Part shown: piece after piece, positions 4,715 to 27,637 of the stretch
How positions within the stretch are numbered: the first letter of the stretch is position 1
Layout: every line of letters begins with the position of its first letter
NCBI GenBank assembly: GCA_963709845.1
Contig: CAVPXV010000006.1
Coordinates: 346,243-410,242 of the forward strand
Length of the DNA stretch: 64,000 nucleotides
DNA from: an uncultured Thermoleophilia bacterium
Lineage (GTDB): Bacteria; Actinomycetota; Thermoleophilia; UBA2241
Reading direction: 5' to 3'
Notes under the pieces: generated by a model
What the model saw: only the letters and a program-made list of their open reading frames with translations
Told to the model about the DNA's origin: nothing
Databases searched by the model: none
Program-made: the position numbers and the translations under genes

Positions 4715-5194
4715 TCACCACACGAACGGCACAAAGCTGTGGTGCACGTTCGCCCGGTACTCTTCGTAGTCGGGGTGCGCCTCGACGAGCCAAGCCTCCT
4801 CACGACGCCGCTTGGCGTCGAGGAAGACCGCCGCGGCGGTCCACGGTGCCAGCGCCAGCGGGGACGAGAGAAGCGACCAGGCCAGCGCCAGCAGCAGGAC
4901 GCCGCCGTACATCGGGTGGCGGACGAGGCCGTAGGCCCCGCCACGCTTGAGGCTGCCCTCCTCGACCGGTTTCGGGAACGGCGTTATCTGCCTGCCGAGG
5001 CCGCCGGCAGCGCCGGCGAACAGGGAGAGGCCGCCGAGGGCGCTCACGGCAGCGGCGACTTGTCGCACCTGGCGCGCCGATGACGGCCAGCGCGAGCCGC
5101 GGACCCCGGCGGCAGCGATGGCGGCGAGGAGCACCAGCTGCAGGGCGACCCAGCCCTCGCCGCGGCGTCCGAGCTGAGGCAGGCTTCCGTTCAT
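4715..5194 (-). CDS. Isoprenylcysteine carboxyl methyltransferase / PEMT family membrane protein
   Basis: GAYGLVRHPMYGG motif, REEAWL, YEEY. Confidence 0.88.
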   Translation of the reverse strand: MNGSLPQLGRRGEGWVALQLVLLAAIAAAGVRGSRWPSSARQVRQVAAAVSALGGLSLFAGAAGGLGRQITPFPKPVEEGSLKRGGAYGLVRHPMYGGVLLLALAWSLLSSPLALAPWTAAAVFLDAKRRREEAWLVEAHPDYEEYRANVHHSFVPFVW

Positions 5195-5360
5195 GAGGCG
5201 CCTTTACCCAGTTCGGGCGGAGTCCCGCCGTTACGGGGTCACTGCGCCGGAGTCCCGCGTCGCCCGGACGACATCCACGCGGGTCACGCGCGCGGGAAGG
5301 CCGTCATCACCGTCTGAGGCGTGCCTCGGCGACCCACAAGCTCCTCTTGCAGGGCGGCCT

Positions 5361-6242
5361 CTAGGACCCCAGAGGGAACCAGCGCTCGCGATGCTGGAAC
5401 AGGTAGCGGTCCGTGAGGAAGTTCAGGACCATGCGCGCGTGCCGGAAGTGCTCCACGATGTAGGCGAGCACCGGCGCGAAGCCGAGGTCGCGGTGCAGCG
5501 TCGCCTCCCACGAGAGCGCATACGAGCGGCGCCCGATCGACTCGAGCTGCGCCAGCGCCCCCAGGTCCGGGATCAATGGCCGCGCCGGCCGCTCCTCCCC
5601 GCCTTGCCCCGCGGCGAGCGCCCGGCTCAGGCGCTCGACCGCGAGCGGCGCCAGCGCGTGAGCCTCGGCGTAGTCGGGGAACACGCCGCTCAGGAACAAG
5701 CTCAGATCGCCGAGCCGCCGATAGAGGACCAGACGCTGGTCGGGCGGCACCGTGAGGATGAGCTCGGCGAACTGGGCCGGGTCGAGCTCGCTGAAGCGCC
5801 GGTGCCGCCAGCCGCGCCGGCTCTTGACCCAGATCGCCCCGCTGGCCACGTGCGTGTACGAGGCGAGCAGGTCGGCGAGGAAGAGCCGCCGCAAGGGGTC
5901 GGCCACCAATTCGCGCAGCGGCTCCACCTCGAACACGGGTACGCTGCGCCGAGAGCCGATACGCTCGGGCACGAACGCCAGCCCCTCGAGGAGCACCGGC
6001 GTGCGCGCCAGCAGGGTCGCAAACGCCATGAAGGGACTCACCAGCACGAGCGCGTCCTCGTCGCTCCGGCGGAACAGTGCCTCGAACAGCTCTGGCGCTC
6101 CGAGGAGGCGCTCGATCTCCCCCGCCTGGTCGCGCAGGCGAACGGCGGCAGGCGCGCCCCCGACCGACCCGCCGGCCACCCGCGCCAGCAGCTCCAGGTC
6201 ACGGTCGGTCAAGCGTTCGCGCAGGAGAAGATCAGCAACCAT
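5361..6242 (-). CDS. Conserved hypothetical protein
   Basis: Long ORF with globular composition (YRRLGDLSLFLSGVFPD); no function recognised. Confidence 0.7.
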   Translation of the reverse strand: MVADLLLRERLTDRDLELLARVAGGSVGGAPAAVRLRDQAGEIERLLGAPELFEALFRRSDEDALVLVSPFMAFATLLARTPVLLEGLAFVPERIGSRRSVPVFEVEPLRELVADPLRRLFLADLLASYTHVASGAIWVKSRRGWRHRRFSELDPAQFAELILTVPPDQRLVLYRRLGDLSLFLSGVFPDYAEAHALAPLAVERLSRALAAGQGGEERPARPLIPDLGALAQLESIGRRSYALSWEATLHRDLGFAPVLAYIVEHFRHARMVLNFLTDRYLFQHRERWFPLGS

Positions 6243-6364
6243 GTCACGGTTCTTCCCGCAGAGCCGGGACGTCCAGCATGGCCCGCTGGCGGCCGTCGCC
6301 GGTCGGCCGCCCCGCGGTCGCCTGACGGCCGCCCATGAGGACGTTGCCGTGCGCTCGCGCCTTG

Positions 6365-6471
6365 GCTCACCACACGAACGGCAGGGAACCTCTCCGAACC
6401 CTCGCCCGGGTACTCCTCGTAATCGGGGTGCGCCTCGACGAGCCAGCCCCCCCAACGACACCGCTTGGCGT
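6365..6471 (-). repeat. Decayed direct duplicate of the 3' end of the 4715-5194 methyltransferase gene
   Basis: Shares GCTCACCACACGAACGGCA, TCGGGGTGCGCCTCGACGAGCCA and CCGCTTGGCGT with 4713-4818. Confidence 0.85.
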
Positions 6472-6556
6472 GGCCGCCGCGACAGTGCGCGGCATCGCGA
6501 CTCCCTGAGGTCGGCCCCGGGGCTCGGCCCGCCCGCGCGGCCGGGTATACCCCATC

Positions 6557-7030
6557 ATGGCTCCCTGGAAGCTTCCACCGCCGGCCAAGATCTACGAGGC
6601 CTTCAGCGCCCTCGCGGACGGCCGCGTGCACATCGAGGAGCCGGGACGCGCCACGGTGCGGTCTTCCGGCGGCGACAAGACCTACACGGTCGAGTGGACG
6701 GGCGATTTCGCGGCCGTCACGTCGAACGACAACGCCTCGTACTGGCAGGGCTACCTGGGCTACCCGATCGTGGCCGTCCTCGTCGCCGCGGGGAAGGTGG
6801 ACGTCGACGGGGCCGTGCCGGGGATGCTCGCGGGGATCGACTGGCATGCCCTGAACGAGCGCTTCAGGCGCGACTACGACGCCGCCGTATCGCAGGTGCT
6901 CGACGACCTCGACGAACGCGGAGAGGATTGCGCGCGCATCATGCGCGCGGTCGACAGCGCGATGGACCAGCTCGAGGCGCTCAAGCTGGAGCGAGGGGGA
7001 CGAGGCCGCCGGCCTCCCTCGCGAGGCTGA
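6557..7030 (+). CDS. Conserved hypothetical protein
   Basis: WKLPPPAKIYEA...SNDNASYWQGYLGYP; clean high-GC3 frame. Confidence 0.75.
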   Translation: MAPWKLPPPAKIYEAFSALADGRVHIEEPGRATVRSSGGDKTYTVEWTGDFAAVTSNDNASYWQGYLGYPIVAVLVAAGKVDVDGAVPGMLAGIDWHALNERFRRDYDAAVSQVLDDLDERGEDCARIMRAVDSAMDQLEALKLERGGRGRRPPSRG

Positions 7031-7128
7031 AGCTCAGCGGCAGAAGGTCGTCGGATGCGCCTCACCCCTGCGAGTGCAGTCCCCGCCTCGGGCGAGGCCC
7101 CGGCCGATCGCGAGCCGCCGGTCGCCGG

Positions 7129-7836
7129 TCAGGCGGCGAGCATACGCTCCGCGTCCACCGCGCCGCCGGCGTCCTCCTCGTGCTTGAACAGCAGGTAGAC
7201 GTCGCGCCCGTCGCCGAGCAGCTCGCGCGAGCGCCTCCGCAGGCGCGCGATCGCCGTCTCGTCGTAGTCCGGTTTGCGCAGCCGGTAGTAGACGAAGTCG
7301 GCGGTGACTACGTCCGGCACCGTGAGCGTTTCGGACTCCGCCACGCAGAGGGCGGCGTTGCGCCGGCTCAGCAGCTCGTAGACTTCCGGGACGAACCACG
7401 AGGCATGCCGGAACTCGACGGCGAAGCGCACGTCGCCGGGGAGCATCTCGAAGAAGCGTTCGAGGCGCGGCAGGTCGAGCTTGAGGTTCGGCGGCAGCTG
7501 CAGGAGCACGGGGCCCAGGCGCCCGGCCTCATGGAGCGGGCGCAACGTCGAAAGGAAGAACTCGGCAGGCTCGCGTGCCTCCTCTTTCAGCCGTTTCACG
7601 TGCGTGATCGACTGGTGCGCCTTGACCGCGAACGCGAACCCGGGCGGCGTCGAGGCAACCCACGCCGCCACCGTCTTCGCCGACGGCATGTGGCGGAACG
7701 TGTAGTTGATCTCCACACAGTTGAGCCGGCCGGCGTAGTGCTCCAGAAAGCGCGCGGCCGGGAGCTTCTCGGGGTAGAACTCGGGCTTCCAAGCCGGGTA
7801 GGCGAACCCGGAGGTGCCCGCATAGAGCGTCGCCAC
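7129..7836 (-). CDS. DUF72 family protein
   Basis: GTSGFAY, VEINYTF, FAVKAHQSITH, LLQLPP, AVEFRH. Confidence 0.93.
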   Translation of the reverse strand: MATLYAGTSGFAYPAWKPEFYPEKLPAARFLEHYAGRLNCVEINYTFRHMPSAKTVAAWVASTPPGFAFAVKAHQSITHVKRLKEEAREPAEFFLSTLRPLHEAGRLGPVLLQLPPNLKLDLPRLERFFEMLPGDVRFAVEFRHASWFVPEVYELLSRRNAALCVAESETLTVPDVVTADFVYYRLRKPDYDETAIARLRRRSRELLGDGRDVYLLFKHEEDAGGAVDAERMLAA

Positions 7837-8049
7837 GTCTCACCTCGCTTCCTCCGTGGACCATGAGGACGGACGGCGGGCAGAGGAGGGCCTGCAGCGC
7901 CGACCGTCCTGCCTTTCAGGTGCCCGCTGCGCCGCGGGGTCACACCAGAGTGCCGGGCATGGCATCGCCGCCACCTCGAGCGGGAAAGCATGCAGTGGAA
8001 CGCGTGGGGTGGACCGCAGTCACAGGCAGAGAAGACGAGGAGGACGACG

Positions 8050-9925
8050 ATGAGCGCTCAACCCCATGTCACCGAAGACCTGCCAGGCCTGGAGGCCGTA
8101 CGCGAGCTGGCGGGCCAGCTCCGCGCCGACAGTATCCGCTGTACGTCGGCGGCCGGCTCCGGCCACCCGACGTCCAGTCTCTCGGCGGCCGACTTGATGG
8201 CCGCCCTCTTCGCCCGCCACCTGCACTACGACTGGGGCAGGCCCGAGCGCCCGGACAACGACCGCCTGATCTTCTCCAAGGGCCACGCGTCGCCGCTGCT
8301 CTACGCCCTCTACAAAGCTGCCGGCGTGATCAGCGACCGAGAGCTCGTGGAGACGTACCGGCGAGCCGGATCGCCGCTGCAGGGTCACCCCACTCCGATG
8401 TTGCCGTGGGTCGACGTGGCGACGGGCTCCCTGGGACAAGGGCTGCCTGCCGGCGTCGGCATGGCCCTCGCCGGCAAGCTGCTCGACCAGCTCGACTACC
8501 GCGTGTGGGTGCTATGCGGCGACAGCGAGCTGGCCGAGGGCTCCATCTGGGAGGCGCTCGACAAGGCTGCGTTCTACGGTCTCTCCAACCTGACGGTGAT
8601 CGTCGACGTGAACCGGCTGGGGCAGCAGGGGCCCACCGAGCTGCAGTGGGACCTCGAGGCCTACCGGCGGCGCGTCGAGGCCTTCGGGGCTCGCGCCGCG
8701 GTCATCGACGGCCACGAAATCGGGCAGATCGACGAGGCCTTCTCGCTCGCCGAGCGGTCCGACCGGCCGACGGTCGTCCTGGCGCGGACGGTCAAGGGCA
8801 AGGGCGTCCCCGAGGTCGAGGACAAGAACGGCTGGCACGGCAAGCCGCTGCCGGCGGACGTCGCGGAGAAGGCCGTGCGCGCCCTCGGCGGCGTTCGCGA
8901 GCTGAGGGTCGCGACGCCGCCGCGCCGCGCACGGCCGTCGGCGGTCACGGCGAGGCCGCGGCCCGCCGTGGAGCTGCCGCGCTACGAGGTGGGCGCCAAG
9001 GTCGCGACGCGCACGGCCTTCGGCGATACACTCGCCGCGCTCGGCGCCCGGCCGGAGATCGTCGTCATCGACGGCGAGGTCGGCAACTCGACGTTCACCG
9101 AGACGTTCAAGGCCCACTACCCCGAGCGCTTCTTCCAGATGTACATCGCGGAGGGGCAGATGATCGGCACGGCGGTCGGCCTGAGCGCGCGCGGCTACGT
9201 GCCGTACGCGGCCACCTTCGCCGCCTTCCTCAGCCGCGCCTATCGACTTCGTGCGCATGGCCGCGGTCTCGAAGGCGGACATCCGCCTGTGCGGCTCGCA
9301 CGCCGGCGTGGAGATCGGCCAGGACGGGCCGTCGCAGATGGGGCTCGAGGACATCGCGACGATGCGCGCCGTGCACGGCTCGACCGTGCTCTATCCGAGC
9401 GACGCGACCTCGGCGGCGGCGCTGACCGCGGCGATGGCCGACCGCGCCGGAGTCAGCTACCTGCGCACCACGCGCGGCGCCTACCCGGTCCTCTACGCCG
9501 CCGGCGAGAGCTTCCCGGTGGGCGGCTCCAAGACCCTCCGGCTCTCGGGCGAGGACGAGGTGTTGCTCGCCGGCGCCGGCGTCACGCTCCACGCCTGTCT
9601 CGAAGCGGCGGAGCGGCTCGCCGCGCACGGCGTGTCGGCGCGGGTGATCGACCTCTACTCGGTCAAGCCCATCGACGGCGAGGGCCTGGCGGCGGCGGCG
9701 CGCGCCTCGGAGCGCCGCCTCGTCGTGGTCGAAGACCACTACCCCGAAGGCGGCCTCGGCGAAGCCGTCCTGGCCGCCCTCGCCGGCACCGGCGAGGCGT
9801 TCCGGGTCGAGCACCTCGCCGTCCGCGGCATGCCCGGCTCGGGCACCCCGGCGGAGCTCATGAAGGCCGCCGGGATCAGCGCCGACGACATCGAGGCGGC
9901 GGCACAGCGGCTGCTCGAGAGCTAG
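8050..9925 (+). CDS. tkt: Transketolase (single frameshift near 9243)
   Basis: SGHPTSSLS, FSKGHA, TGSLGQG, GDSELAEG TPP motif; continues in the 9251-9925 frame (GQDGPSQM, EDHYPEGG). Confidence 0.92.
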
Positions 9926-9964
9926 CTAGGGCCGCCCCGCGCCGCGGCCGCCGCGGGCGAGCAG

Positions 9965-10888
9965 TCAGCGCAGCCGCGTGACGAAGCGCGCGTAGTCAGG
10001 GTCCTGGCCCCTCAGGACGGCCTGGTACCGCTCCCTGATGCGCGCCGTCACGGGGCCGATGCGGCTGCCGTTGACGGCGCGCGCGTCGACCTCGACCACC
10101 GGAGCCACGTAGGTCGACGTCCCGCAGGCGAAGACCTCGTCGGCGATGTACAGCTCGGTCAGGTCCACCTCGCGCTCGTGGGTCGGCACCCCGAGGTGCT
10201 CGGCCACCAGCAGCACGGTGCTGCGGTTGATCCCCTCGAGGAGGTCGCTGGCGGTGCTGGGAGTGATGAGCACGCCGCTCCGCACGATGAAGATGTTGGC
10301 GGCGCTGAGCTCGCAGACGTGCCCGGCCGCGTCGAGGAAGATGCAGTCGTCGTAGCCGCTGTCGATCGCGTCCTGCTTGGCGAGCACGGAGTTCACGTAG
10401 GCGCCGTTGACCTTGGCGCGCGAGGGGATGGCGTAGTCGGGGATGCGTCGCCACACGCTCGTCTTGAGGCGCGCGCCGTCGAGCGGCAGGATGGACTCCG
10501 CCGTGTAGACGAACATGCTGAGCAGCGTCGCCATGCCGCGCGAGCGCGTGCCCGGCAGCTCCTCGCTGACGTGCACACTTACCCTGACGAAGACGTCCTC
10601 CGCCACGTCGTTCGCGAGCACGACCTCCCTGACGGCCTCCACGAAGCGCGCCTCGCTCCAGGCCGGCTCGAAGGTGTCGATGCCGATGATGCGGGCGGAG
10701 TTCACGAGCCGGCGGTAGTGATCGGCGAGGCGGAAGGCGACTGCTTCATGATCACGCGTGATCGTGACGGGCAGGACCGTGTAGACGCTGAGGCCGTAGA
10801 GCACCGCCGCGCTGGTGATGCTCAGGGTCGCGTCCGCGGTCGGGATGATGCCGGAGCCGAAGTAGGCCCTGGGGTAGACCTGTGCCAT
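9965..10888 (-). CDS. ilvE: Branched-chain amino acid aminotransferase (class IV)
   Basis: FRLADHYRRL, RAKVNGAYVNS, ELSAANIF, LEGINR, EVFACGT. Confidence 0.85.
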   Translation of the reverse strand: MAQVYPRAYFGSGIIPTADATLSITSAAVLYGLSVYTVLPVTITRDHEAVAFRLADHYRRLVNSARIIGIDTFEPAWSEARFVEAVREVVLANDVAEDVFVRVSVHVSEELPGTRSRGMATLLSMFVYTAESILPLDGARLKTSVWRRIPDYAIPSRAKVNGAYVNSVLAKQDAIDSGYDDCIFLDAAGHVCELSAANIFIVRSGVLITPSTASDLLEGINRSTVLLVAEHLGVPTHEREVDLTELYIADEVFACGTSTYVAPVVEVDARAVNGSRIGPVTARIRERYQAVLRGQDPDYARFVTRLR

Positions 10889-11194
10889 GTGAGACCTCTG
10901 TCGCGCTCGATTGGGGCTTGCGCCTGGTCGGCCTCCGCAGGTGTCTGAGGCCGGTGGCGCCCGGGGCTGTTGCCGGGTGTACCTACCAGAACCCGCGGCC
11001 GCTCGCAACTGCGCCTCCGCGACGCCGCACGCCGGCGATGCCGCGGCCGTCGCAGTCGGCGCGGATGTCGGCGAGGCACTGGTGACATCGGGAAGCTCGC
11101 ATCGCACAAGCAGGCCGGCCGCCAAGCCTGAGCCACCGCTGACTCCTGCTTGCCTAGCGCCACGTGGGTGAGCAACGGCGTGGTGCGGGCGCCG

Positions 11195-11914
11195 TCATTC
11201 AGATGTTCCGGCGGAGAGGCCGCGGACGACCGGCCAAGCCGCGGCGAACGCGACATCGGCGCGCCGCTCGATCTCGGCACTGCGCCGCCGCATCTCCGTG
11301 ACATCGGGATCCTCGTCCAGGTACTTCAGGTTGATGTCGACGTCGACGGCGCCGCAACGGACGCACGTGATCGCCGTCTGCACGGCCACCGCAAGTTCGC
11401 TCGCGGCGGCGGTGTTGAAGCCGGCGCTGAGGCCCGCCGCGAGCTCGAGAACCTCAAGACAGGCATCCGCCGCGGCCAGCGGCACGGCCGCCGCGTGCCG
11501 CCTCGCGACGGTCATGGCGGCTCCGCGCGCCGCGTCCTCCTCCGTGGTGCCCCTGGGCAAGCGGGAGGACCCGGCGACCGCGAGGTAGGCGTCGGTGTCG
11601 GCATCGACGGCGGCGAGGAGTCGCGTCCTCAGGGCCTCGGCGGCCGCACACGTGGACCGTAGCTTCGCCCCATCGACCTCCACGCCCTCCTTGGCGACCG
11701 TCAGCCGGCACACCATGCCGACCAGGGCGGCGGCCATGGAGCCGGCGTAGGCAGCGACGCTCCCGCCCCCGGCTCGCGGGAACGGTGCCCCGACCTCGTT
11801 CGCGAAATCGCGAAGCGTGAGGTCGATCAACTTCCTCTTGGCGAGGTCTGGCGCGGGCTCCAGCACCTGAGCGAGAGGGTCTGCGACGTCATCGCCCACT
11901 CTGATTGCGCTCAT
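11195..11914 (-). CDS. Formiminotransferase-cyclodeaminase C-terminal (cyclodeaminase/cyclohydrolase) family
   Basis: PRAGGGSVAAYAGSMAAALVGMVCRLT, DADTDAY, VDINL. Confidence 0.85.
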   Translation of the reverse strand: MSAIRVGDDVADPLAQVLEPAPDLAKRKLIDLTLRDFANEVGAPFPRAGGGSVAAYAGSMAAALVGMVCRLTVAKEGVEVDGAKLRSTCAAAEALRTRLLAAVDADTDAYLAVAGSSRLPRGTTEEDAARGAAMTVARRHAAAVPLAAADACLEVLELAAGLSAGFNTAAASELAVAVQTAITCVRCGAVDVDINLKYLDEDPDVTEMRRRSAEIERRADVAFAAAWPVVRGLSAGTSE

Positions 11915-18469: not shown

Positions 18470-19294
18470 CTACGCGGCGGACCGCCTTGACCCGTTGCCC
18501 GCCGCCGCGCGCTCTTCCTGGAAGAACTCGACCAACACGGGCGCCAAGGCCTCCACAGCCACGTCGTGACGCTGGCCCTCGAGCTCCCGGTAGCGCCCGG
18601 CCGGCATGTTCTCCACCAAAGCGGTAGCCGTGTCGCGCATGAACGGGTAGCTCTCGCTCCCGTTCATCACCAGCGTCGGCGCCCGGAGGTCCGCAGCCCG
18701 CGCGATGGGCACGGCGCGGTCCTCGCCGAGGATGGCTGCGTCGTAGACGAGCGTCGGCGCCACCGCCTCGAGCGGCGGCCACATCGGCGTCTCCCGCATC
18801 GCCGCGACCTGCTCGGCCGGGACACCGACCAAGGCCATGAAGAGCGCGACCGCATCGCCTCGGCGATCGGCCGCCAGCAGCTCCCTGAGCCGCCGTCTGT
18901 AGTCCCGCCAGAGCTGTACATCTTCGGCGTTGTAGGGAGGCTCGTAGAGGGCGACCGCCTTGACCTGCTCGCCGAGCCCGAGCGCCGCCTCCAGGGCGAG
19001 GGCCGCGCCCGAGGAGATGCCGTAGAGAGACGCGGCGGTGCCGGCCTTGCCGATGAGCGCCCCGATGTCTTCGACCTCGCGCTCGACGGCGTAGGGCAGC
19101 GTGTCGCTGCTCTCGCCGCGGCCGCGGCGGTCGTAGGTGATGACGCTGAAGTGCGGTGCGAGGAGCGCCGCCAGCTTCGGCATGTACCCGAACGACCTTG
19201 AGCCCAGCGCGCCGTCGATCAACAGCAGCAGGTCGCCCTCACCGCTCTGTTCGTAGGCGATCTTCGTACCGTCTTTTGAGATCACATGAGGCAT
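18470..19294 (-). CDS. Alpha/beta fold hydrolase
   Basis: SKDGTKIAYE, YDRRGRGES, GISSGA nucleophile elbow, GQRH. Confidence 0.9.
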   Translation of the reverse strand: MPHVISKDGTKIAYEQSGEGDLLLLIDGALGSRSFGYMPKLAALLAPHFSVITYDRRGRGESSDTLPYAVEREVEDIGALIGKAGTAASLYGISSGAALALEAALGLGEQVKAVALYEPPYNAEDVQLWRDYRRRLRELLAADRRGDAVALFMALVGVPAEQVAAMRETPMWPPLEAVAPTLVYDAAILGEDRAVPIARAADLRAPTLVMNGSESYPFMRDTATALVENMPAGRYRELEGQRHDVAVEALAPVLVEFFQEERAAAGNGSRRSAA

Positions 19295-19457
19295 GGCCCG
19301 CCTCCTTGCTGCGTTTGACGGACAAGGGGAAGATTGCCGGTTGGGAGGGAGTGAAACGCGGCGCGGGTGTTCGCGCGTGCGCGAAGCGTAGGGGTCACTC
19401 TTCGTCCATCAGCGGCACGAGCCAACGGCGGAGCCTGGAACAGTGCCTGAAGGCACG

Positions 19458-20234
19458 TCACCGGGTGTCGCCGAGAGTCGCCTCGAGGCCGCGCGCGTCC
19501 CCCTCCTCATCAGCGAGAACGGTGATGCCGGCGTAGCCGAGGCGCGCGAGGTCGGCGCCGAGCGCGTCGGCCTGCCCGCCACCGAGTTCGAGCAAGAGCG
19601 CGCCGCCGCGTCGCAAGAAGCGGGGGCTGTCGCTCAGGACGCGGCGGAGGATCTCGGTGCCATCGCGACCGCCGTCGTAGGCCAGCGGTGACTCGAACGC
19701 GAGGGTGTCACGCTGCAACAACGGCAGCTCGGGCGTCGGCACGTATGGCACCACGCCGACGACGACGTCGACGCCTCCTTCGAGCGTGCGTGGGAGCGGC
19801 GTGAACAGGTCGCCCCGGTAGACCTCCACGCCGTTCGCGGCCGCGCAGGCGACGGCGCGCTCGTCGACGTCGGACGCCACGACGCGCGCGCCGGGGCGCT
19901 CGGTCATCAACACCTTGGCGATCGCTCCGGCCCCGGTGCAGAGGTCGATCGCCGCGCCGTTCCTCGGCAGACGCGCGACGGCGCGACGCGCGAGCGGCTC
20001 GCTCTGCCGGCGCGGAACGTAGACGCCGGGATCGACGCGGATCTCCACGCCGCAGAACGAGACGCTCCCGGTGATCCAGGCGAGTGGCTCGCCGGTGAGG
20101 CGACGTCTCGTGAGCGCGGCGAGGAGTTCGACATCGCCTGCCGCTCGAGCGAGGAGCTCGTCCGCCTCCTCTGGCGCCGCGACAAACCCGGCGCCCGCGA
20201 GCAGCGCGGAGAGCGCGTCGCGATCGTTGGGCAT
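19458..20234 (-). CDS. HemK/PrmC-related SAM-dependent methyltransferase
   Basis: RRLTGEPLAWITG, VYVPRRQSE, IDLCTGAGAIA, AYDGGRDG; NPPY replaced by VVPY. Confidence 0.85.
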   Translation of the reverse strand: MPNDRDALSALLAGAGFVAAPEEADELLARAAGDVELLAALTRRRLTGEPLAWITGSVSFCGVEIRVDPGVYVPRRQSEPLARRAVARLPRNGAAIDLCTGAGAIAKVLMTERPGARVVASDVDERAVACAAANGVEVYRGDLFTPLPRTLEGGVDVVVGVVPYVPTPELPLLQRDTLAFESPLAYDGGRDGTEILRRVLSDSPRFLRRGGALLLELGGGQADALGADLARLGYAGITVLADEEGDARGLEATLGDTR

Positions 20235-20438
20235 CGGCACTCCTAGTCTTTTCGGCACACGCGACCTGCTTTGGGAGCTCGTCGGTCTCCCCCGGCGCCG
20301 GCTGCACGCCCAGTCAGGCGGATTTGTCGCGAGCCTGCTCGGTGACCGGCATTGCCTCCGTGGCTCTGCCGAGCGCCACCAGGCAGCGCCCCTGCCCGAG
20401 CAGCGCCGCGCGCCGGTGGGCAGGGTCGTAGATCACAA

Positions 20439-21233
20439 TCAGTCGGGCACCTTACCGCCGGCGTGGCACTTGATGCAGTCGGCGAGCGCGGCCGCCGACT
20501 GTCCCTCGTGCCCCGACGACACGTTCTGGGGCGTGTGGAAGTGGCAGCCGTAGCAGGTGTAGGTCGAGGTGCCGCCGGGATGGCAGGTCTGGCACGTCGA
20601 CTGCTGCTGGTTGGTGCCGTGGTTCACCGGGAAGATGTCGTGGTTGAAGTTGGCGCCGGCCCAGCTCGAGGTGCCGTGACACCCGCCGCATTGCGTCCCG
20701 AACGCGCCGTGGTGGACGTCGTTCTTGGCGTGGCAGCCGTTGCAGTCGACGGGCGCGCCTTGGAAGTTGGCGCCGGTGTGGCAGGCGCTGCAAAGCAAGG
20801 TGGCGTGCTTGCCCGTGAGCGCGAAGCCGGTCACCGAGTGCGGGAAGCTCGCCGAGTTGAGCGAGGTGAGCACGCCGTTCGGCCCATTGTGGTCGGGGTG
20901 GCAGCCGCCGCAGGGTGCCGAACGCATGGCCGCGAGCGTCCCGTGCAGCCCGCTCTTGCCGCTGATCTGCGTGCCGACGTCGGCGTGGCAGCCGACGCAC
21001 TTGTCGGCCATGCTCTGGGAACTCCAGGGCGCCGTGTGACAGGCGCCGCAGCGGTTGCCGAGCTGGGCGTGGTTCGTGATGCCGCCCAGGGGAGCGGCCC
21101 TCGCCTGCGAGTTCAGCGATCCGGGGCTGAAGAGGAACGGGCTGGCGACGATCGTGACCGCCACGACCACCGCAAGAAGCACGACGGCCACCGCGATGCC
21201 GATGGGTGAGAAGAAGCCCGGTCGCCTGCTCAT
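20439..21233 (-). CDS. Membrane-anchored multiheme cytochrome c (9 CxxCH)
   Basis: N-terminal hydrophobic anchor; CGACH, CVGCH, CGGCH, CSACH, CNGCH, CGGCH, CQTCH, CYGCH, CIKCH. Confidence 0.93.
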   Translation of the reverse strand: MSRRPGFFSPIGIAVAVVLLAVVVAVTIVASPFLFSPGSLNSQARAAPLGGITNHAQLGNRCGACHTAPWSSQSMADKCVGCHADVGTQISGKSGLHGTLAAMRSAPCGGCHPDHNGPNGVLTSLNSASFPHSVTGFALTGKHATLLCSACHTGANFQGAPVDCNGCHAKNDVHHGAFGTQCGGCHGTSSWAGANFNHDIFPVNHGTNQQQSTCQTCHPGGTSTYTCYGCHFHTPQNVSSGHEGQSAAALADCIKCHAGGKVPD

Positions 21234-21254
21234 CGTCGCGTCACCTGCCTCGAG

Positions 21255-21881
21255 CTATCGCTGTAGGGTCGCGTAGTAGAGCGCCGCCACCACGTGGATG
21301 AAGGCGGCGGCGAAGAGCGCCCACGTGAGCGGTATGTGCACCATGTGCCAGGTCGCGAGCGCCCTTCTGCGTCTCGCGATCCGCTCGCGATCCTCGTCCC
21401 GTGCGCTCGCGGCGACCACGTCGTCGATCGTCCGCGGCACCCTCGTGTAGATGTAGCGCCCCACGAGGCCGCTGATGACGACCACCACGGTCAGGAGCAT
21501 CGCCAGCCCGGCGAGGCCGTTGAACTTCATCGACGTGTGCAGCAGCACCATGTACGGCCCCACGAGGCCCATGACCATGTGGCTCTTCAGCCAGACGGCC
21601 GTGCTTCCCCAGCGCGCGTCACTGCGCAGCTTGCGCAGCGAGTAGAGGGTCACCGTCGCCAGCATGAGGATGAAGCCGGCGATCCCGATGCCGTGGCCGA
21701 TGAGGCTCGACGCCCTGGGGAGTGCGCTGGCCTGCACGGAGGCGAACGCGTACAGCGCCGTGACTGCGACGATCGCGATGAGCGCGTACCAGAGCTCGGG
21801 CGAGCGCCCGAACATCTTCCGCGCCGGCCGTGCCGGCGCCGCGATCGAGCTCGCCGTGAGTTCCTGCTGCTGCCTAGGCAA
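21255..21881 (-). CDS. Polytopic membrane protein with conserved histidines (cytochrome b-like)
   Basis: About 5 TM helices; GHGIG, WLKSHM, LLHTS, WHMVHIP, FIHV; TTG start with AAGGAG overlapping the upstream stop. Confidence 0.78.
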   Translation of the reverse strand: MPRQQQELTASSIAAPARPARKMFGRSPELWYALIAIVAVTALYAFASVQASALPRASSLIGHGIGIAGFILMLATVTLYSLRKLRSDARWGSTAVWLKSHMVMGLVGPYMVLLHTSMKFNGLAGLAMLLTVVVVISGLVGRYIYTRVPRTIDDVVAASARDEDRERIARRRRALATWHMVHIPLTWALFAAAFIHVVAALYYATLQR

Positions 21882-23202
21882 GCTGCTCCTTCCACTCGCG
21901 CCAGCAGACCTCGACGAGCTCGGCGATCGCGGCCCCCGCCGCCTTGAGGTTCGCGGCGATGCTGCCCACGTCGGCGCGCGCCTCGATGAGGTCCTGCAGC
22001 GGGAACGACAGGGACTGGTCGCCCATGACGACCGCGCCGGCGAGGGTGCGCTCCCCCACGGCGAGCCGCACGCGGGCGCCGTGGGTCTGCGTCTCGACGG
22101 CCACGGCGTCGCCGATCTCGGACCAGGTCTGGCTGGCGCCGCGCTGCAGGCCCTCGAGATCGGCGTCCCTGCCGCCGCTGCCGACACTGCCGACGGTGCC
22201 GATGATCGTCGTCTTGAGGCCGGCCAGTCTCGTGACGTTGAGGGGAATGCCCTGCTCGTATGCGTGGACGGGCTCGCTGGTCATGTTCAGGCCGGCGGCG
22301 CGACCTTTGAGCACCGCCGAGTTCCACAGGACCTCCATCGTGCGGCGGCCCGTGGCGGGGTCGGCGGCCTCGGCCACGTCGCCCGCCGCGTAGACGTCCT
22401 CATCGCTGGAACGGAGGTACTCGTCGACCAGGATCCCCCGTCCGCATGCCAACCCCGCCTCCCGAGCCAGCTCGATGCGGGCGTGGACGCCGATCGCGAC
22501 CGCCACGAGGTCGCAGGGGATCCGCTTGCCGTCGCCGGTCTCGACGGCAGCCACGCGGCCGTCGCGGCCGAGGATGCCGGCGAGCTCCGTGTAGTTGTGG
22601 ACGCGCACGCCTCGGCCGACCAGTTCCTGCTCCACGACGTGAGACTCGGTCTCGGACAGCACGTTTCTCCAGTAGCGGTCCTGACGCATGAAGTAGTCCA
22701 CCGGCACGCCGTGCGCGTGCAGGCCCTCGACGATCTCGAGAGCCGTGATGCCTCCTCCGACGACCACCGCTCCCTTGGCGCCTCGGCTTCTGCGGATGAT
22801 GTCGTTGGCGTCATCGAGGTCGTCCAGCTTGACCACGCCGTCCAGCTCGGCGCCCGGCACCTTGGCGGGGATGGCCGTGGAACCGGTGGCGATCAGCAGG
22901 CGGTCGTAGCCGAGTTCCCGGCCACTCTCGAGCGTCACCCTGTGCGCCTTGGTGTCGATGCCGTCGGCGCGCTCGTTGACGATGGTGAGGCCAAGGCCGA
23001 CGAGGCCCTCGGCCGAGAACGGCCGCAGCCACTTCTCGGGGATCTCCTTGGCAAGGTAGTAGGCGAGGCCGGGGCGGGAGTAGTAGCCGTGCGGATCGGC
23101 GCCGACGACCACGATCTCGGCGCCCGCGTCGGCACCGCGGATCGCCTCGGCCGCGGCGATGGCCCCCGGCCCGATGCCGATGAGCACGTGGCGCCTGGCC
23201 AT
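21874..23202 (-). CDS. NAD(P)/FAD-dependent oxidoreductase (NirB N-terminal / rubredoxin reductase-like)
   Basis: VLIGIGPGAIAAA, LLIATGS, VVVGGGITALE, YAAGDVA. Confidence 0.9.
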   Translation of the reverse strand: MARRHVLIGIGPGAIAAAEAIRGADAGAEIVVVGADPHGYYSRPGLAYYLAKEIPEKWLRPFSAEGLVGLGLTIVNERADGIDTKAHRVTLESGRELGYDRLLIATGSTAIPAKVPGAELDGVVKLDDLDDANDIIRRSRGAKGAVVVGGGITALEIVEGLHAHGVPVDYFMRQDRYWRNVLSETESHVVEQELVGRGVRVHNYTELAGILGRDGRVAAVETGDGKRIPCDLVAVAIGVHARIELAREAGLACGRGILVDEYLRSSDEDVYAAGDVAEAADPATGRRTMEVLWNSAVLKGRAAGLNMTSEPVHAYEQGIPLNVTRLAGLKTTIIGTVGSVGSGGRDADLEGLQRGASQTWSEIGDAVAVETQTHGARVRLAVGERTLAGAVVMGDQSLSFPLQDLIEARADVGSIAANLKAAGAAIAELVEVCWREWKEQLA

Positions 23203-23203
23203 G

Positions 23204-23473
23204 TCAGCGCCCTCCCTGGGCACGGCCGCCGTGGGTGCCGGCGATGGGCTCGAAGCGAAGCAGGCCGCGCGGGCAGCGCTTGATGCACTCTCCGCAGGTC
23301 AGGCAGCGGCTGTCCTTCACGGGCTCGCCGAGCCACACGTGGCGCCTGACGTCGATCTCGATGGGGCAGTTGAACGAGCAGACGCCGCACTGGACGCAGC
23401 GGATCGGCTCCGGCAAGACCCACGCCGTCGCGAGGGCGGCATACTTCTCCCTGTCCGCACTGAACCAGCCCAT
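23204..23473 (-). CDS. 2[4Fe-4S] ferredoxin-like protein
   Basis: CVQCGVCSFNCP and CLTCGECIKRCP; GGGAGG RBS. Confidence 0.88.
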   Translation of the reverse strand: MGWFSADREKYAALATAWVLPEPIRCVQCGVCSFNCPIEIDVRRHVWLGEPVKDSRCLTCGECIKRCPRGLLRFEPIAGTHGGRAQGGR

Positions 23474-23530
23474 GGTGATGCCGTAGCCCTCCCTGAGGTC
23501 TGCCCTGACTCGCACGCGGCGTGGGACGAG

Positions 23531-23564
23531 TCGCGACCAGTATCTCATCGCGACCAGTATCTCA
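23531..23564. repeat. Perfect 17-bp tandem duplication upstream of the redox operon
   Basis: TCGCGACCAGTATCTCA at 23531-23547 and 23548-23564. Confidence 0.9.
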
Positions 23565-23640
23565 TCAACGCGCCAGCGAGGGGAGCCGTGCGTTGCCGGC
23601 CGCCATCGCGCCGCCCGTGCTCCATTCGCAGGAGAGAAGT

Positions 23641-23686
23641 TGGAGGCGGCGACCGGAGTCGAACCGGTGATGGAGGTCTTGCAGAC
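23641..23686 (-). other. 3' half of tRNA-Cys(GCA); probable att-site duplication
   Basis: Minus strand GTCTGCAAGACCTCCATCACCGGTTCGACTCCGGTCGCCGCCTCCA: anticodon loop, T arm and CCA end; no D arm or 5' acceptor strand upstream. Confidence 0.85.
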
Positions 23687-24023
23687 GTCCGTCGGCGGTG
23701 CTGGGCAGTAGTCCACCCTGTGCGATGAGGCCATGCGCCGCGTCGCTCACATGCTCCATCTGGAGGAGGGCGCGGGACCCGGATGCGGGCGTCTTAGCCG
23801 AGGTGGGGGACACGAGTGCAGGCAAGGGTCGTCATCTCGAACAGGCGCCCGCAATAGACCAGCTCTCAGACGCCGGACGCCGCCACGCAGCGCGTGATCT
23901 GCGTCGGACAGTCCTGCGGGGTCGTTCGGCCAGTGCCAAGCATCTCGGCGCTCCTCCCTTCGGACGCAAAGCCAGCGTGCCGTCGAGAGAAGCCGCGTCG
24001 CTCTTACGCCTTGAGCGTATCCA

Positions 24024-24533
24024 CTATCGGAGGTCGCCGCCGCGGCCGACCGTGAGGGGGAGCAGCGCGGGGCGGGGTATGCGCCGAGCATGTCCGGGAG
24101 GGCGCCGCGCGGCTGGCCTGGGGGGCTGCCCTATGCCGTCACACTCGGCCTGAGACGGTGACCACGGCCCGCCGCGAACCGCCAAGCCCGCCGCCAGGGC
24201 ACCGGTCAAAGTGGCGAGCAGGGCGAGGCCGGCCGCCTGCTGGGCCTCGCCGCCGAGCGGCCCGCTGGCGAACGGATCACCGCCCCAGGACTTCTGCGCG
24301 AGGCCACGCGCCCAGTCGCGGCCGAGGTACTCCATCTGCAGCGTCGAGAACGACACCGCGCTACGCCCGCGAGATGACTCGGAGAGGTGAGTACAGGGGC
24401 GCGTCGTCAGCGTGAAGCGTTGCGCGCCGCAGGCGAGGATGCGCTCGCCGGGCGCGGCGATGCAGCGTGCATGGTCGTCATCGGGGAGTCGCTTGGGGTC
24501 GTTCTCCCAGACCCACTCCAGCGGGACCTTCAC
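24024..24533 (-). CDS. Hypothetical protein (possibly decayed)
   Basis: GAGGAG RBS before GTG, TATACT -10 near 24605; one hydrophobic segment; C-terminal part doubtful. Confidence 0.4.
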   Translation of the reverse strand: MKVPLEWVWENDPKRLPDDDHARCIAAPGERILACGAQRFTLTTRPCTHLSESSRGRSAVSFSTLQMEYLGRDWARGLAQKSWGGDPFASGPLGGEAQQAAGLALLATLTGALAAGLAVRGGPWSPSQAECDGIGQPPRPAARRPPGHARRIPRPALLPLTVGRGGDLR

Positions 24534-24674
24534 CCTGGCACTCCTCGCCTCGGCCTTGGGGCCAGCGTGCCATCGTGTGAAGCCGCGTCGGTCTGACTTT
24601 TTTAGTATACACCTTGGGCGGCACGTCCTGGGGCGGGCGCCGGTCGCTCCGAGATCGCCGCGGTGCCGACGAGG

Positions 24675-25235
24675 CTAGCGGCGGACGCCGGGCAAGTCCC
24701 GTTCCATGTGAAGCGTCGTGCCGTGTTCGTCGGAGAGGATCTCCAGGTCGTCCATGAGGTTGCTGATCAGGAACAGCCCGCGTCCGTGCTCGCCCATCAG
24801 GTCGGGCTCCGCGTCACTGTCGATCTGCGACGGGTCGAAGCCTGGTCCCCCGTCGCTGACGTCGAGCGTGAAATGGTCGTCGCGCAGGTCGGCGAAGACG
24901 CCCACGGGGCTGCCCGGCGCGTGCGCGACCGCGTTGATGAGCGCTTCGTCGGCGCAGAGCACGATCAGTCGCGTGGCAGCATCGTCGACGTCGTTCGCGG
25001 TCAGATAGGTCGTGAGAGCCTCGCGCAGCACAGTAGCCGATGACGGCCGAGCCGCGAACCGGCGCCGGAACGCGTCGGCGCGCTGCCGCCGCCCACGGCT
25101 GGTATCGCTGCCGGCGGCCCCGACGGCCACGAGACCAGGGGTGCTGCCCCTCGTGGCCGTGACAGTAGCCGCCATGTGGCGCGGGGTGGGATCGACTGTG
25201 GTCTCCATCTTCCCCTTGACTGCCCCGGTCCTCAT
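24675..25235 (-). CDS. Anti-sigma factor / RsbW-like serine kinase (HATPase_c_2)
   Basis: LCADEALINAVAH, VSDGGPGFD, GEHGRGLFLISNLMDD. Confidence 0.85.
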   Translation of the reverse strand: MRTGAVKGKMETTVDPTPRHMAATVTATRGSTPGLVAVGAAGSDTSRGRRQRADAFRRRFAARPSSATVLREALTTYLTANDVDDAATRLIVLCADEALINAVAHAPGSPVGVFADLRDDHFTLDVSDGGPGFDPSQIDSDAEPDLMGEHGRGLFLISNLMDDLEILSDEHGTTLHMERDLPGVRR

Positions 25236-25389
25236 GGCTCCCACCCCTCCGCTGCTCCCTCGGGTCACCGATGTGGTCGTGGCTCAAGTGTGGCCCTGGG
25301 GGTGGGGCGGGCGCGCCGGCCATCGGGGGAGATCCTGACCTGCTGATGCGGGGAGTCTTTGCCCTGGTCAGACGGGCAGGGGGCGGCGT

Positions 25390-27637
25390 CTACGGGCGCC
25401 AGACGGCGCGGACACAGGTGCCGTCGTCGCTCGACGACAGCTCGAGCCGCGCCCCGATCGACTCGGCCCGCTCGGCCATGATGACGAGCCCGAGGCGGCC
25501 GGACGACCCGGCCGTCACATCGAAGCCACAGCCGTCGTCGGTGATGACCAGCTCGAGCAGGTCGCCCCCATCGTCATGACCGTCGCGCAGGCTCACGAGG
25601 ACCTGTTCGGCCCCTGCGTGCTTGACGACGTTGTTGAGCGCTTCCTGGGCGATGCGGTACATGGCAACGGCCACCTCGGGCGGCAGTTCCCGCGTACTGT
25701 CGACAGCGAGTTCGACGGGGATGCGCGCTCGCCCCACCACGGCCTCACCCAGCTGGCGGAGCAGGTCGGGAAGGCTCGTCTCGGCGAGCGCCGCCGGCCG
25801 CAGCTCGAGCAGCAGCATGCGCATCTCGGCCAAGGCCCCTCGTGTCAGCTGCCGCAGCTCCTCCAGCCGTTGCCTGCCCTGTTCGGGGTCGCGCTCGTAG
25901 ATGCGGGGCAGGACCTCGGCCGTCAAGCTCACGGAGAACAGGGTCTGGCTGACGGCATCGTGCAGGTCGCGCGCGAGCCGCTGCCGCTCCTTGGCGGCGG
26001 CCAGCTCGCGCGCGTTCTGGTACAGCCGCGTGTTCTCCACGGCGATCGCCAGCTGGTCGGCCAGCGTCGTGATCGCGAACAGGTCCTGCTCGTCCAGGGG
26101 ATGGGGGCTGCGCGACGTGATGTCGAGCACGCCGGCGAGGCTGGCGCCCACGCGGATCGGCACGGCGATCTCGGAGAGGGATCCCTTCTCAGGCTCCTCT
26201 TGAGACGTCTGCCCGCCCTCGCGCTGTGGCTCGTTCTCCAGGAGCGGTTCGCCCGTCCGTACGACCGACTGCCACCGCCGGCAGCCGGCCGAGATCGGCG
26301 ACCTCCATGTCGCACCGCTCCTCAGTCGCGCCCCGGCTGCACGAGAGCAGCTGCGCCGACCCTTCCTCTGCGAGAAGGAGGATGCGGACGCTGTCGTAGT
26401 CGAAGGTCCGCAGGAGCGAGCCCGCGACGTAGGGCAGCAACTCGTCGAGGTCGAGGATCGAGCTGATCTGCCGTCCCGCTTCGTTGATGGCGCGCAGGTG
26501 ATGGGTGCGCTTCTCCAGGCTGCGCACCAGGTCGCGAAGCCGGTGGGTCATGCGGTTGAACGCGTGGGCGAGCTTGCCGATCTCGTCGTTGCGCCTGACC
26601 GGCGCCTCGAGGTCCAGATCTCCATCGGCGATCAGGCTCGCGGTGTCGCCAAGCTCCGACAGCGGACGCACGATGCTGCGGATGAGGACGATCCCGACGA
26701 GGATGGCGAGGAGCGCGGCGACCAGCGCCACGCCTCCGGCGGTCCACAGGGCCAGCTGCGTGGCGTGCAGCGCTTCGGCCTCGCCCTGCTCCGCCAGCAG
26801 CCCCACCTTCAATCCCGGTATCCACTTGTACACTCCGATCACCGTGACGCCGGCATAGCCCTGATACGTGGCGAAACCGGATCTGGTCCTGTCGACCGCC
26901 TGGGTGGAACCCGCGGTGCGGATGTACGTATCGGGGATGGAGTAGCCAGGTCGGCGAAGGTCGGTCAGCAGACGGTGGTTGGAGCCGATGAGGTACGTCT
27001 CGCCGGTCTGACCCAGCCCAGCCCGGCCGACCATGAGCGCGTTGAGGCTCTCCAGATTCGCCCGCCCGGCCAGTACGCCGATAGCGGCGTCGTGATAGGT
27101 GACGGGACAGCTGGCGACGACCGTCATCTTGTTGAGCGAGAGCGAATAGGAGGGCTCCTGGATGAACTCGTTGCGCATCCCCTCGGTGAAGTAGTCGTTC
27201 ATCCCGAGCTGCTGCTGCTCGTGGCCTCTCTCCGTCGACAGCAGGACCTCGCCCTTCGGCCCCATGAAGAAGAGCTCCTCGAAGAGGCCCATGCGCTTGG
27301 CGGCCCAGGTGAACCGGCGCAGGACCCGAGCGTGGGCCGCCTGGTAGGCGGCCGAGGTCGGAGCGGCCTGGGTGAGCGTGTGCAGGTCCGCGGAGATCTC
27401 CTCGGCTGACAGCACGATGTCGAGGTTCAGCCGCAACCCTCCGACCCAGGAATCGACCTCCTGCTGCTTCAGCGTCGCGACCGACTCCAGCTGGCCGACC
27501 ACGCGGTCATGCGCGTCGCGGGACACGAGGAGCGCGGTGACGATGCTGATGGCGATCGCCGTGAACGCCACGATGAACACGCAGTAGAGGAGAAGTCTGT
27601 TCCTGATCGTCCATGACCCGGGGAGCCTGAAGCGCAT
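25390..27637 (-). CDS. Sensor histidine kinase (TM-Cache-TM-HAMP-GAF-HisKA_3-HATPase), disrupted near 26190-26300
   Basis: Two TMs, HAMP RNDEIGKLAHAFNRM, ERQRLARDLHDAVSQ, QEALNNVVKHA, DDGCGF. Confidence 0.88.

Follow-up and report, generated by a model that had tools for sequence, protein, structure and literature searches.

A compact unit of four genes on a 64,000-nucleotide stretch of contig CAVPXV010000006.1, from an uncultured Thermoleophilia bacterium, appears to encode a membrane-bound electron conduit, in which a ferredoxin, a flavoprotein, a membrane protein and a multihaem cytochrome c would together carry electrons from cytoplasmic NAD(P)H to the outer face of the cell. The whole stretch is hereafter called the window, and all gene coordinates are positions in it. 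From sequence comparisons and structural models we infer the binding among the four proteins, their cofactors, the outward direction, the quinone-free path and the acceptor, and we place the probability of this reading at roughly 0.5. The four genes, all on the minus strand, are as follows.

23204-23473, minus strand: ferredoxin gene, 89 amino acids (aa)
21874-23202, minus strand: flavoprotein gene, 442 aa
21255-21881, minus strand: membrane protein gene, 208 aa from a TTG start
20439-21233, minus strand: cytochrome c gene, 264 aa

A first-pass annotation of this DNA had described four co-directional genes spaced by 1, -8 and 21 nucleotides (nt), along with the contents of their proteins, and sequence and domain scans bore this out in every detail. 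The ATG of the flavoprotein lies 1 nt past the TGA of the ferredoxin; the membrane protein starts with a TTG at 21881, with AAGGAG 5 nt upstream, and thereby overlaps the flavoprotein gene and its TAG by 8 nt; and 21 nt separate the membrane protein stop from the cytochrome gene. Another possible start of the membrane protein is the ATG at 21815, which would give 186 aa and is equivalent to the start used by many Chloroflexota homologues. Runs resembling Shine-Dalgarno sequences precede the gene starts, and the third-position G+C content is high in all four genes.

The same arrangement recurs in many other genomes. In a genome search seeded with the cytochrome, at least 583 of the 600 pattern matches listed were confirmed and 80 loci were kept, 63 of which carried the ferredoxin, flavoprotein, membrane protein and cytochrome genes colinearly on one strand. 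Twelve of the other 17 ended at a contig edge, and their visible genes fit the order; locus L067 had all four genes, with the membrane protein placed after the cytochrome, and three loci (L066, L068 and L079) had giant paralogous cytochromes with 57, 39 and 81 CxxCH motifs, respectively, without the other three genes. For the count by phylum and for the tree, near-full flavoproteins were used and matches spanning 380 residues or fewer were left out; the resulting 64 loci belonged, by NCBI phylum, to Chloroflexota (41), Actinomycetota (14), Planctomycetota (5), Gemmatimonadota (3) and Myxococcota (1). In a FastTree phylogeny of these 64 flavoproteins and that of the window, the sequences grouped largely by phylum, with Actinomycetota forming one clade with a support of 100; the loci closest to the window were those of metagenome-assembled genomes of Thermoleophilia, among which L002 had 84-92% protein identity. 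The annotation had linked the conduit to monoderms; this link found no support, and the unit is also present in the records of Planctomycetota, Gemmatimonadota and Myxococcota.

A second sample was seeded with the membrane protein and comprised 401 genomes of the phylum of genome G401, which carries the Anaerolineales locus L036 (Chloroflexota). Matches were found in 51 of these genomes, 22 of them strong and 29 weaker. All 22 strong matches had the flavoprotein upstream and a multihaem open reading frame (ORF) downstream, and the ferredoxin was visible at 19 of them, the other three loci ending short of its position. The four-gene synteny by which the annotation had proposed to judge the unit was thus upheld, by colinearity at 63 of 80 loci in five phyla and by the agreement of the 22 strong matches with regard to the flavoprotein and the multihaem partner. 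In the window's own phylum, the membrane protein was present in 3 of the 401 genomes sampled, including the window genome, and one genome of the same genus was without it. When a profile of the membrane protein was run against 1.84 billion representatives clustered at 50% identity, 4297 clusters were matched at E <= 0.001, 2617 at 1e-10 and 199 at 1e-30. The genes that flank the unit in the window are not its neighbors at the other loci, and ORF clustering over the 80 loci, although noisy from shadow ORFs, revealed no further conserved neighbor; the recurrent ones were housekeeping genes (D-Ala ligase, PHP, 3-hydroxyacyl-CoA dehydrogenase and ATP synthase). Since neither these flanks nor any other neighbor is kept beside it, the unit is, on comparative grounds, self-contained, and it is old enough to be structured by phylum.

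Variants of the unit were also found. The 29 weaker matches constitute a distant subfamily, in which the multihaem ORF was missing at 7 of the 8 loci examined, and the ferredoxin and/or flavoprotein adjoined the membrane protein at 6 of the 8. The membrane proteins of this subfamily (L117-L123) are 300-360 aa long, with two His pairs and a long cytoplasmic insert. At L122 (1-2436), a flavoprotein-like C-terminal ORF, recognized by eye where tblastn gave no flavoprotein, is accompanied by a ferredoxin of 108 aa and by a membrane protein of 354 aa in which both H-x13-H pairs are present. In genome G314 (L092, G314:C44:4000-18000; 2245-11730), the flavoprotein is fused to three FHA domains, the iron-sulfur (FeS) protein has two cNMP-binding domains, and an 877-aa protein has an N-terminal membrane domain followed by five CxxCH; the next genes are CcmE and CcmF. 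Such regulatory domains on cytoplasmic redox subunits are unusual. Because of the distant subfamily and the G314 variant, the cytoplasmic pair appears to be tied to the membrane protein apart from the cytochrome. Eleven longer relatives of the membrane protein were found, of which nine were read for fusions. Six (P0121, P0123, P0126, P0129, P0130 and P0131) look like frameshift or assembly artefacts, two (P0122 and P0128) are uncertain as fusions, and P0124 has an N-terminal extension of the GYF type; none of these was used as evidence.

Regarding the cytoplasmic pair, the ferredoxin has two CxxCxxCxxxCP motifs, whose cysteines (C26, C29, C32 and C36, and C57, C60, C63 and C67) were invariant in 25 of 25 sequences, and it scored above the cut-off for Pfam Fer4_9, Fer4_10 and Fer4_7; by these features it is a ferredoxin of the bacterial 2[4Fe-4S] type. 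Neither this protein nor the flavoprotein has a signal sequence, as read from the translations, and the ferredoxin is predicted to be a cytoplasmic electron carrier. The flavoprotein matched Pfam Pyr_redox_2 (PF07992) with 164.1 bits against a cut-off of 26.1 (E 6.1e-48), and PF00070 with 32.3 bits. Of its three cysteines only C230 is conserved (61 of 65 sequences), such that there is no conserved Cys pair, and G9, G11, G149, G150 and G151 are among the positions that are at least 95% conserved in the same 65 sequences. It is, by sequence, of the ferredoxin/rubredoxin-reductase type, with two Rossmann folds and no redox-active disulfide. Thus, the Pfam matches and the two alignments agree with the annotation, which had seen a 2[4Fe-4S] protein next to a flavoprotein with no redox Cys pair. 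Just past the second Rossmann strand, R173 was found in 65 of 65 sequences and R176 in 64, and a glutamate of the NAD-linked 8c0z_E aligns with M172, one residue ahead of R173; by the usual rule for residues after this strand, this hints at a preference for NADPH. The best PDB sequence match of the flavoprotein was this same chain E of 8c0z (3.8e-33), with rubredoxin and ferredoxin reductases next in rank, and its NCBIfam relatives, all far under the cut-offs, were PadH, the N-terminal part of NirB, NorW and the ferredoxin reductases of dioxygenases. PadH scored 158 bits against a cut-off of 475, and PadF, matched by the ferredoxin, 24 against 150. The likeness to PadH/PadF of phenylglyoxylate dehydrogenase and to the flavin adenine dinucleotide (FAD) subunit of 8c0z lies in an NAD+-linked pair that hands electrons over from FAD to FeS; those modules serve soluble catalytic subunits, whereas the pair in the window adjoins membrane cytochrome genes.

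The membrane protein was modeled by AlphaFold2 from a 28-sequence alignment, which gave five helices and a mean predicted local distance difference test score (pLDDT) of 84.4, placed as follows.

Residues 28-51: helix 1 (AlphaFold2)
Residues 60-85: helix 2 (AlphaFold2)
Residues 94-115: helix 3 (AlphaFold2)
Residues 123-147: helix 4 (AlphaFold2)
Residues 162-205: helix 5 (AlphaFold2)

In total, 15 Lys and Arg residues are found in the N-terminus and in the loops that follow helices 2 and 4, as opposed to 3 in the remaining loops and the C-terminus, and from this strongly positive-inside distribution the topology is predicted to be N-in/C-out. The annotation had noted about five transmembrane segments and six histidines in this protein and had named conservation of these histidines as a check; all six are indeed conserved among 73 sequences, namely H101, H115 and H182 in 73, H196 in 72, H179 in 68 and H63 in 67. 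The motif H-x13-H occurs twice, as H101/H115 on helix 3 and H182/H196 on helix 5, with 14 residues between the partners in each case. The same His pattern is known from transmembrane bundles with two haems, such as cytochrome b of the bc1 complex and NOX2, the latter with two helices that each bear a His pair spaced by about 13-14 residues. Since H-x13-H is conserved on two helices, two stacked b haems are predicted, one near the inner face with H101 and H182 as ligands, and one near the outer face with H115 and H196. It is to be noted that Y80, R83, K84, G141 and R142, in the predicted cytoplasmic loops, are invariant. A prediction of the complex of the membrane protein and the ferredoxin, with two haems and two clusters, scored 0.21 against a mark of 0.32 and is evidence neither way.

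The assignment of the membrane protein to a known family was less straightforward. It scored 23.7 bits against a cut-off of 30.1 for Ni_hydr_CYTB (PF01292), and among 28 members the sub-threshold Pfam matches were Ni_hydr_CYTB in 26 (best E 3.8e-6), DUF4405 in 11 and Ferric_reduct in 4. A PDB sequence profile search returned nothing meaningful (only 5o0t, E 8.7), a Foldseek search with the model returned nothing at E <= 0.001, and the nearest clusters in the ESM Atlas were hypothetical proteins. The top rows of VIA-align were generic helix bundles with Z up to 9.7, among them b561 (4o6y, 9.2), STEAP4 (8.9, 158 residues aligned) and CybB (5oc0, 8.6, with a root-mean-square deviation of 4.0 over 132 residues); unrelated bundles had Z scores equal to that of CybB.

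The cytochrome has nine CxxCH motifs, which consume all of its 18 cysteines, and ten more conserved histidines, of which H55, H97 and H115 are invariant in 24 sequences and H132, H143, H174, H198, H205, H233 and H242 are at least 90% conserved. It exceeded the cut-offs of three Pfam models, namely Cytochrome_C7 (PF14522, 39 bits), Cytochrom_c3_2 (PF14537, 37.2) and Cytochrom_CIII (PF02085, 29), and is, by these family models, a multihaem cytochrome of the c7/c3 type. Because nine CxxCH are combined with ten conserved histidines and no other Cys, the sequence fits nine bis-His electron-transfer haems, in keeping with the earlier suggestion that the extra histidines of this 264-aa, nine-CxxCH protein could be distal ligands. 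A hydrophobic N-terminal helix occupies about residues 10-34, and the protein is predicted to sit at the outer face. AlphaFold2 without haems gave a mean pLDDT of 57.4, too low for a fold search, and a PDB sequence search retrieved only 3oue_A (E 0.011). Its relatives included 167 of near-equal length and 303 longer ones. Across the loci, the partner cytochromes have 9, 12, 15, 17-18 or 20-23 CxxCH, mostly in steps of three, and a second or third multihaem ORF lies nearby in 18 of the 80 loci; the annotation had called the wire 'minimal', a description that does not suit partners with 12 to 23 CxxCH. In some Chloroflexota loci (L020, L036, L038, L049, L066, L068 and L079), giant multihaem ORFs with 29-81 CxxCH are either neighbors of the unit or the very ORFs that were matched as its cytochrome. 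The genome itself can, judging from its gene content, make c-type cytochromes: the Ccm or Res genes that the annotation had wished to see confirmed are represented by CcmE and three PF01578 genes at C6:825-831 kb and by a weak ResB-like ORF.

On this basis, a path for the electrons may be proposed. The flavoprotein would take a hydride from cytoplasmic NAD(P)H onto its FAD and hand electrons one by one to the ferredoxin, with its two [4Fe-4S] clusters, and the ferredoxin would in turn reduce the inner b haem of the membrane protein, held by H101 and H182. The next step would be transfer through the membrane to the outer b haem, whose ligands would be H115 and H196, followed by entry into the nine bis-His c haems of the cytochrome anchored at the outer face; the electrons would then leave for further multihaem cytochromes or for acceptors in the envelope or outside the cell. 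The scheme would run without quinone. Outward flow is downhill in potential and is assisted by the membrane potential, and such a conduit would thus dispose of reducing equivalents, regenerate NAD(P)+ and dissipate the proton-motive force; a short circuit of this kind should be regulated, and the G314 variant, with its FHA and cNMP domains, is consistent with that. If the conduit is indeed outward, the somewhat favored role is dissimilatory, with Fe(III), humics or partner cytochromes receiving the surplus electrons, and it fits the richness of this genome in multihaem cytochromes, as at least ten further ORFs have four or more CxxCH, several of them of the NapC/NirT type; these ORFs are possible onward partners. 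A supply of reductant to the envelope, as by MsrPQ or STEAP, is a somewhat less favored role, but would suit those carriers that are aerobic or phototrophic.

Several observations weigh against this reading. The case rests on sequence and models, from which the association of the four proteins is deduced. The sole family signal of the membrane protein is its sub-threshold likeness to PF01292, characterized members of which react with quinones, and the fold searches placed haem-binding bundles no higher than generic helix bundles. The host likely has a menaquinone pool, because it has MqnC-like genes, resembling the futalosine pathway (384.9 bits, slightly under the cut-off), with no match to MenA. 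At L018 the flavoprotein alone is missing. In genome G370 the membrane protein and cytochrome genes stand by themselves downstream of a divergent polA, and no flavoprotein match in the assembly, which is 89% complete, exceeded 26 bits; the b-c pair at L116 is likewise without adjoining ferredoxin and flavoprotein genes. Apparently, therefore, the b-c pair can work with another donor or without the cytoplasmic pair. Finally, many carriers are aerobes or phototrophs, as judged by record names (Gemmatimonas, Gemmataceae, Oscillochloris and Herpetosiphon), and are thus a poor fit to a purely anaerobic-respiration role.

Some of these observations could be accommodated if the membrane protein and the cytochrome were a menaquinol:cytochrome c oxidoreductase, in effect CbcL split in two, with the flavoprotein and ferredoxin serving as a second input or output, for instance in balancing NAD(P)H against the quinone pool. 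CbcL of Geobacter sulfurreducens is described as having two b haems, nine low-spin bis-His c haems, ten conserved extra histidines and no conserved Met ligand (PMC9129911), and thus the same count of cofactors as the window pair; the likeness is one of count, by description. CbcL is a single polypeptide with six helices and is described as a quinone oxidoreductase, whereas the window has two genes 21 nt apart, five helices, and a flavoprotein and ferredoxin in addition. The sub-threshold Ni_hydr_CYTB signal in 26 of 28 members, the b-c pairs that stand alone in G370 and L116, and the MqnC-like genes all speak for such a quinol enzyme, which we nonetheless consider unlikely. The flavoprotein and ferredoxin accompany the membrane protein at 22 of 22 and 63 of 80 loci with abutting or overlapping genes, and the distant subfamily keeps these three while dispensing with the cytochrome. 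No b domain was detected by Pfam in the 120 best longer relatives of the cytochrome, and P0121, the one apparent b-c fusion, reads as a frameshift. The b part of CbcL, which we take to be of the HydC/FdnI type (PF01292), shares the broad Pfam neighborhood of the window protein. In HydC/FdnI proteins, the His pattern is 1+1+2, as opposed to 2+2 on two helices here. Moreover, the NapC/NirT-type multihaem ORFs offer separate candidates for quinol oxidation, and because of them the host probably has a separate quinol-fed route.

The direction of flow and the meaning of the gene order may each be questioned as well. All the cofactors are reversible one-electron carriers, the flavoprotein family runs both ways and its relatives include NAD+-reducing complexes, so that the same conduit could run inward, bringing electrons from reduced humics, Fe(II), or a periplasmic hydrogenase or formate dehydrogenase (via cytochromes) to ferredoxin or NAD(P)+. 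A comparable architecture between periplasm and cytoplasm is provided by the transmembrane complexes of sulfate reducers, TmcABCD, HmcABCDEF and DsrMKJOP, which are described as joining a periplasmic multihaem cytochrome c to a b-type cytochrome in the membrane and an FeS protein in the cytoplasm (PMC10861901), a likeness to the window unit in overall layout. On the cytoplasmic side, those complexes use an HdrD-like subunit that contains a CCG motif and a noncubane cluster and that acts on DsrC, and their b subunit interacts with quinone. The window unit instead has an NAD(P)H flavoprotein and an ordinary 2[4Fe-4S] ferredoxin on that side; neither HdrD-like (CCG) nor NarI-type b families were among the Pfam and NCBIfam matches of the four window proteins. 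Inward movement would oppose the membrane potential and, NAD(P)+ being of low potential, only donors of very low potential should suffice. The genes beside the unit do not include a hydrogenase, a formate dehydrogenase or an Fe(II) oxidase, and we regard the inward direction as quite improbable. Equally improbable, in our estimate, is that adjacency reflects shared regulation only, with the flavoprotein and ferredoxin forming a soluble NAD(P)H:ferredoxin system for cytoplasmic enzymes that makes no contact with the membrane protein. Such an arrangement would agree with the fact that binding among the proteins is deduced, with the two solitary b-c pairs, and with the artefactual look of the flavoprotein-membrane protein fusions in the protein database. 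It would leave unaccounted for the order and tight spacing kept over five phyla, the recurrence of the trio in the distant subfamily and the G314 variant, the invariant cytoplasmic loop residues of the membrane protein, and the fact that the unit is single-copy, with no other close flavoprotein or ferredoxin paralogue in the genome.

No matching characterized complex was found by Pfam, NCBIfam, PDB sequence or fold searches, or in the open full-text literature (subscription journals and supplements being outside its scope); such a match had been named by the annotation as grounds for refuting its reading. By gene layout, helix number and family matches, the unit fits none of the membrane systems with which it was compared, although the principle of an NAD(P)H flavoenzyme feeding haems stacked across a membrane is known. 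In NOX, STEAP and Escherichia coli Fre-MsrQ, electrons from NAD(P)H enter through a flavoenzyme on the cytoplasmic side, pass along redox cofactors that are stacked through a bundle of helices, and reduce an acceptor on the opposite side with no quinone donor (PMC12525009), and it is in this working principle that they resemble the window unit. The ferric reductase superfamily has six helices and the window membrane protein five; its dehydrogenases are fused FNR-type or F420H2:NADP+-type domains, or Fre, as opposed to Pyr_redox_2 with a separate 2[4Fe-4S] ferredoxin; and its acceptors are O2, Fe(III) chelates or MsrP, rather than a nine-haem cytochrome. MsrQ and STEAP, in addition, have one haem and a flavin, in contrast to the two b haems predicted here. 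What we take to be the ferric reductase signature, two His pairs on two transmembrane helices with each pair spanning the membrane, is present in 72-73 of 73 sequences, whereas only 4 of the 28 members matched Ferric_reduct (PF01794) by sequence, none with an E value better than 0.16. With regard to Mtr and Pcc, no gene for an outer-membrane beta-barrel lies beside the cytochrome. The annotation had judged the layout to be unlike these systems and free of any catalytic molybdo-, hydrogenase or nitrite-reductase subunit, and in both respects it was right: there are only four genes, Pfam scans of the flanking ORFs in the window revealed a methyltransferase, a hydrolase and sensor proteins with no catalytic subunit beside the unit, and the 80 loci gave no conserved extra neighbor. 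Flavin-based extracellular electron transfer in Listeria employs a type II NADH dehydrogenase, a dedicated quinone and a flavinylated lipoprotein. None of its families (Ndh2, EetA/B, FmnB and PplA) was among the Pfam and NCBIfam matches of the four proteins, although no search was aimed at them.

The outward conduit may have a wider meaning. To our knowledge, the export of electrons to minerals and humics by bacteria without Mtr or Pcc, such as the Actinomycetota and Chloroflexota of soil and peat, is largely unknown, and the inner-membrane entries to multihaem networks that we know of (CbcL, ImcH, CymA and the NapC/NirT types) are all quinone-fed. A conserved operon for a wire from NAD(P)H to haem would follow a different logic, and its family is not rare. 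We tentatively suggest, as a doubtful but attractive generalization, that the flavoprotein, ferredoxin and di-haem protein constitute an unrecognized, widespread class of three-component transmembrane NAD(P)H dehydrogenases, similar to NOX in principle but built of unrelated parts, and that together with c7-type cytochromes of 9-23 haems they form a quinone-independent extracellular route in soil Thermoleophilia, Anaerolineae and others. If so, extracellular electron transfer would have a second basic design beside the quinol-fed cytochromes, and NAD(P)+ would be regenerated without the energy conservation that is coupled to respiration; the process would be aided by the membrane potential, such that control would be needed.

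Among the other multihaem ORFs of the genome, four lie in a row at C7:117488-123458, with 11, 11, 11 and 15 CxxCH, approximately 2.5 kb from the MqnC-like genes (C7:125957-129029). There are also an ORF with 20 CxxCH (C4:757452-759542) and one of 812 aa with 9 CxxCH (C7:463682-466120).

Two features around the operon may relate to its transcription.

23533..23566, minus strand: candidate operon promoter, read from the sequence, a tandem 17-nt duplication with an extended -10-like element (TGn + GATACT) in each copy
20340..20438, minus strand: GC-rich hairpins directly after the cytochrome stop, possible transcript end (RNA fold of -54.4 kcal/mol, z -2.08)

The candidate promoter lies about 65 nt upstream of the ferredoxin start. 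In an upstream alignment of eight Thermoleophilia loci, the sole invariant columns were T154, G155, A158, T159, A160 and T162, corresponding to window positions 23547-23539; an extended -10-like motif is thus all that these eight upstream stretches have in common, and in the window it is duplicated in tandem. A promoter role of the duplication is suggested by this pattern, while generic scans for sigma-70 promoters and for intrinsic terminators gave 0 matches each. The fold at 20340..20438 was equalled by 6 of 200 shuffles and has no T-run, and points weakly to a transcript end. A search with an iron-box consensus of the DtxR/IdeR type, allowing three mismatches, produced 0 matches, and an Rfam scan of 19000-26000 produced nothing at E <= 1. 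Among public sequencing runs, no RNA run was listed as containing this sequence, and the DNA runs that were listed had word shares of at most 0.19.

The annotation had also placed the unit just outside a tRNA-derived att site, and this too was confirmed. At 23635-23700 on the minus strand lies the 3' part of tRNA-Cys(GCA), a 66-nt fragment that extends from the anticodon arm to the CCA, and ARAGORN detected no whole tRNA within the window. The fragment occurs seven times on contig C6, in one orientation, with starts at about 369877, 412339, 430486, 443155, 465491, 475166 and 524221, and two of the seven copies are whole tRNA-Cys genes (412345-412420 and 524227-524300). The copies look like a tandem array of integrated elements of approximately 154 kb (C6 369877-524300), which would place the window positions above about 23700 inside the first element. 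The operon would lie on the chromosomal side of the last att copy, which would explain why the upstream flank of the window is not conserved.

Within 23474-24675, a 1.2-kb stretch where no ORF passed the GC3 filter, a 61-nt element occurs in two copies (23947-24007 and 24537-24597) that are 77% identical and 590 nt apart, with no Rfam match. Each copy, read on the minus strand, has at its end a run rich in GGAG, just before the start codon of a short ORF in one case and of a 169-aa ORF (24024-24533) in the other. Further along, a Cache-HAMP sensor ORF (26189-27637, minus strand) is followed after 25 nt by an ORF at 25390-26163 that begins in mid-GAF and continues with HisKA_3 and HATPase_c, and the region 25390-27637 looks like a single sensor kinase that a frameshift, a stop or an error of assembly has divided in two.

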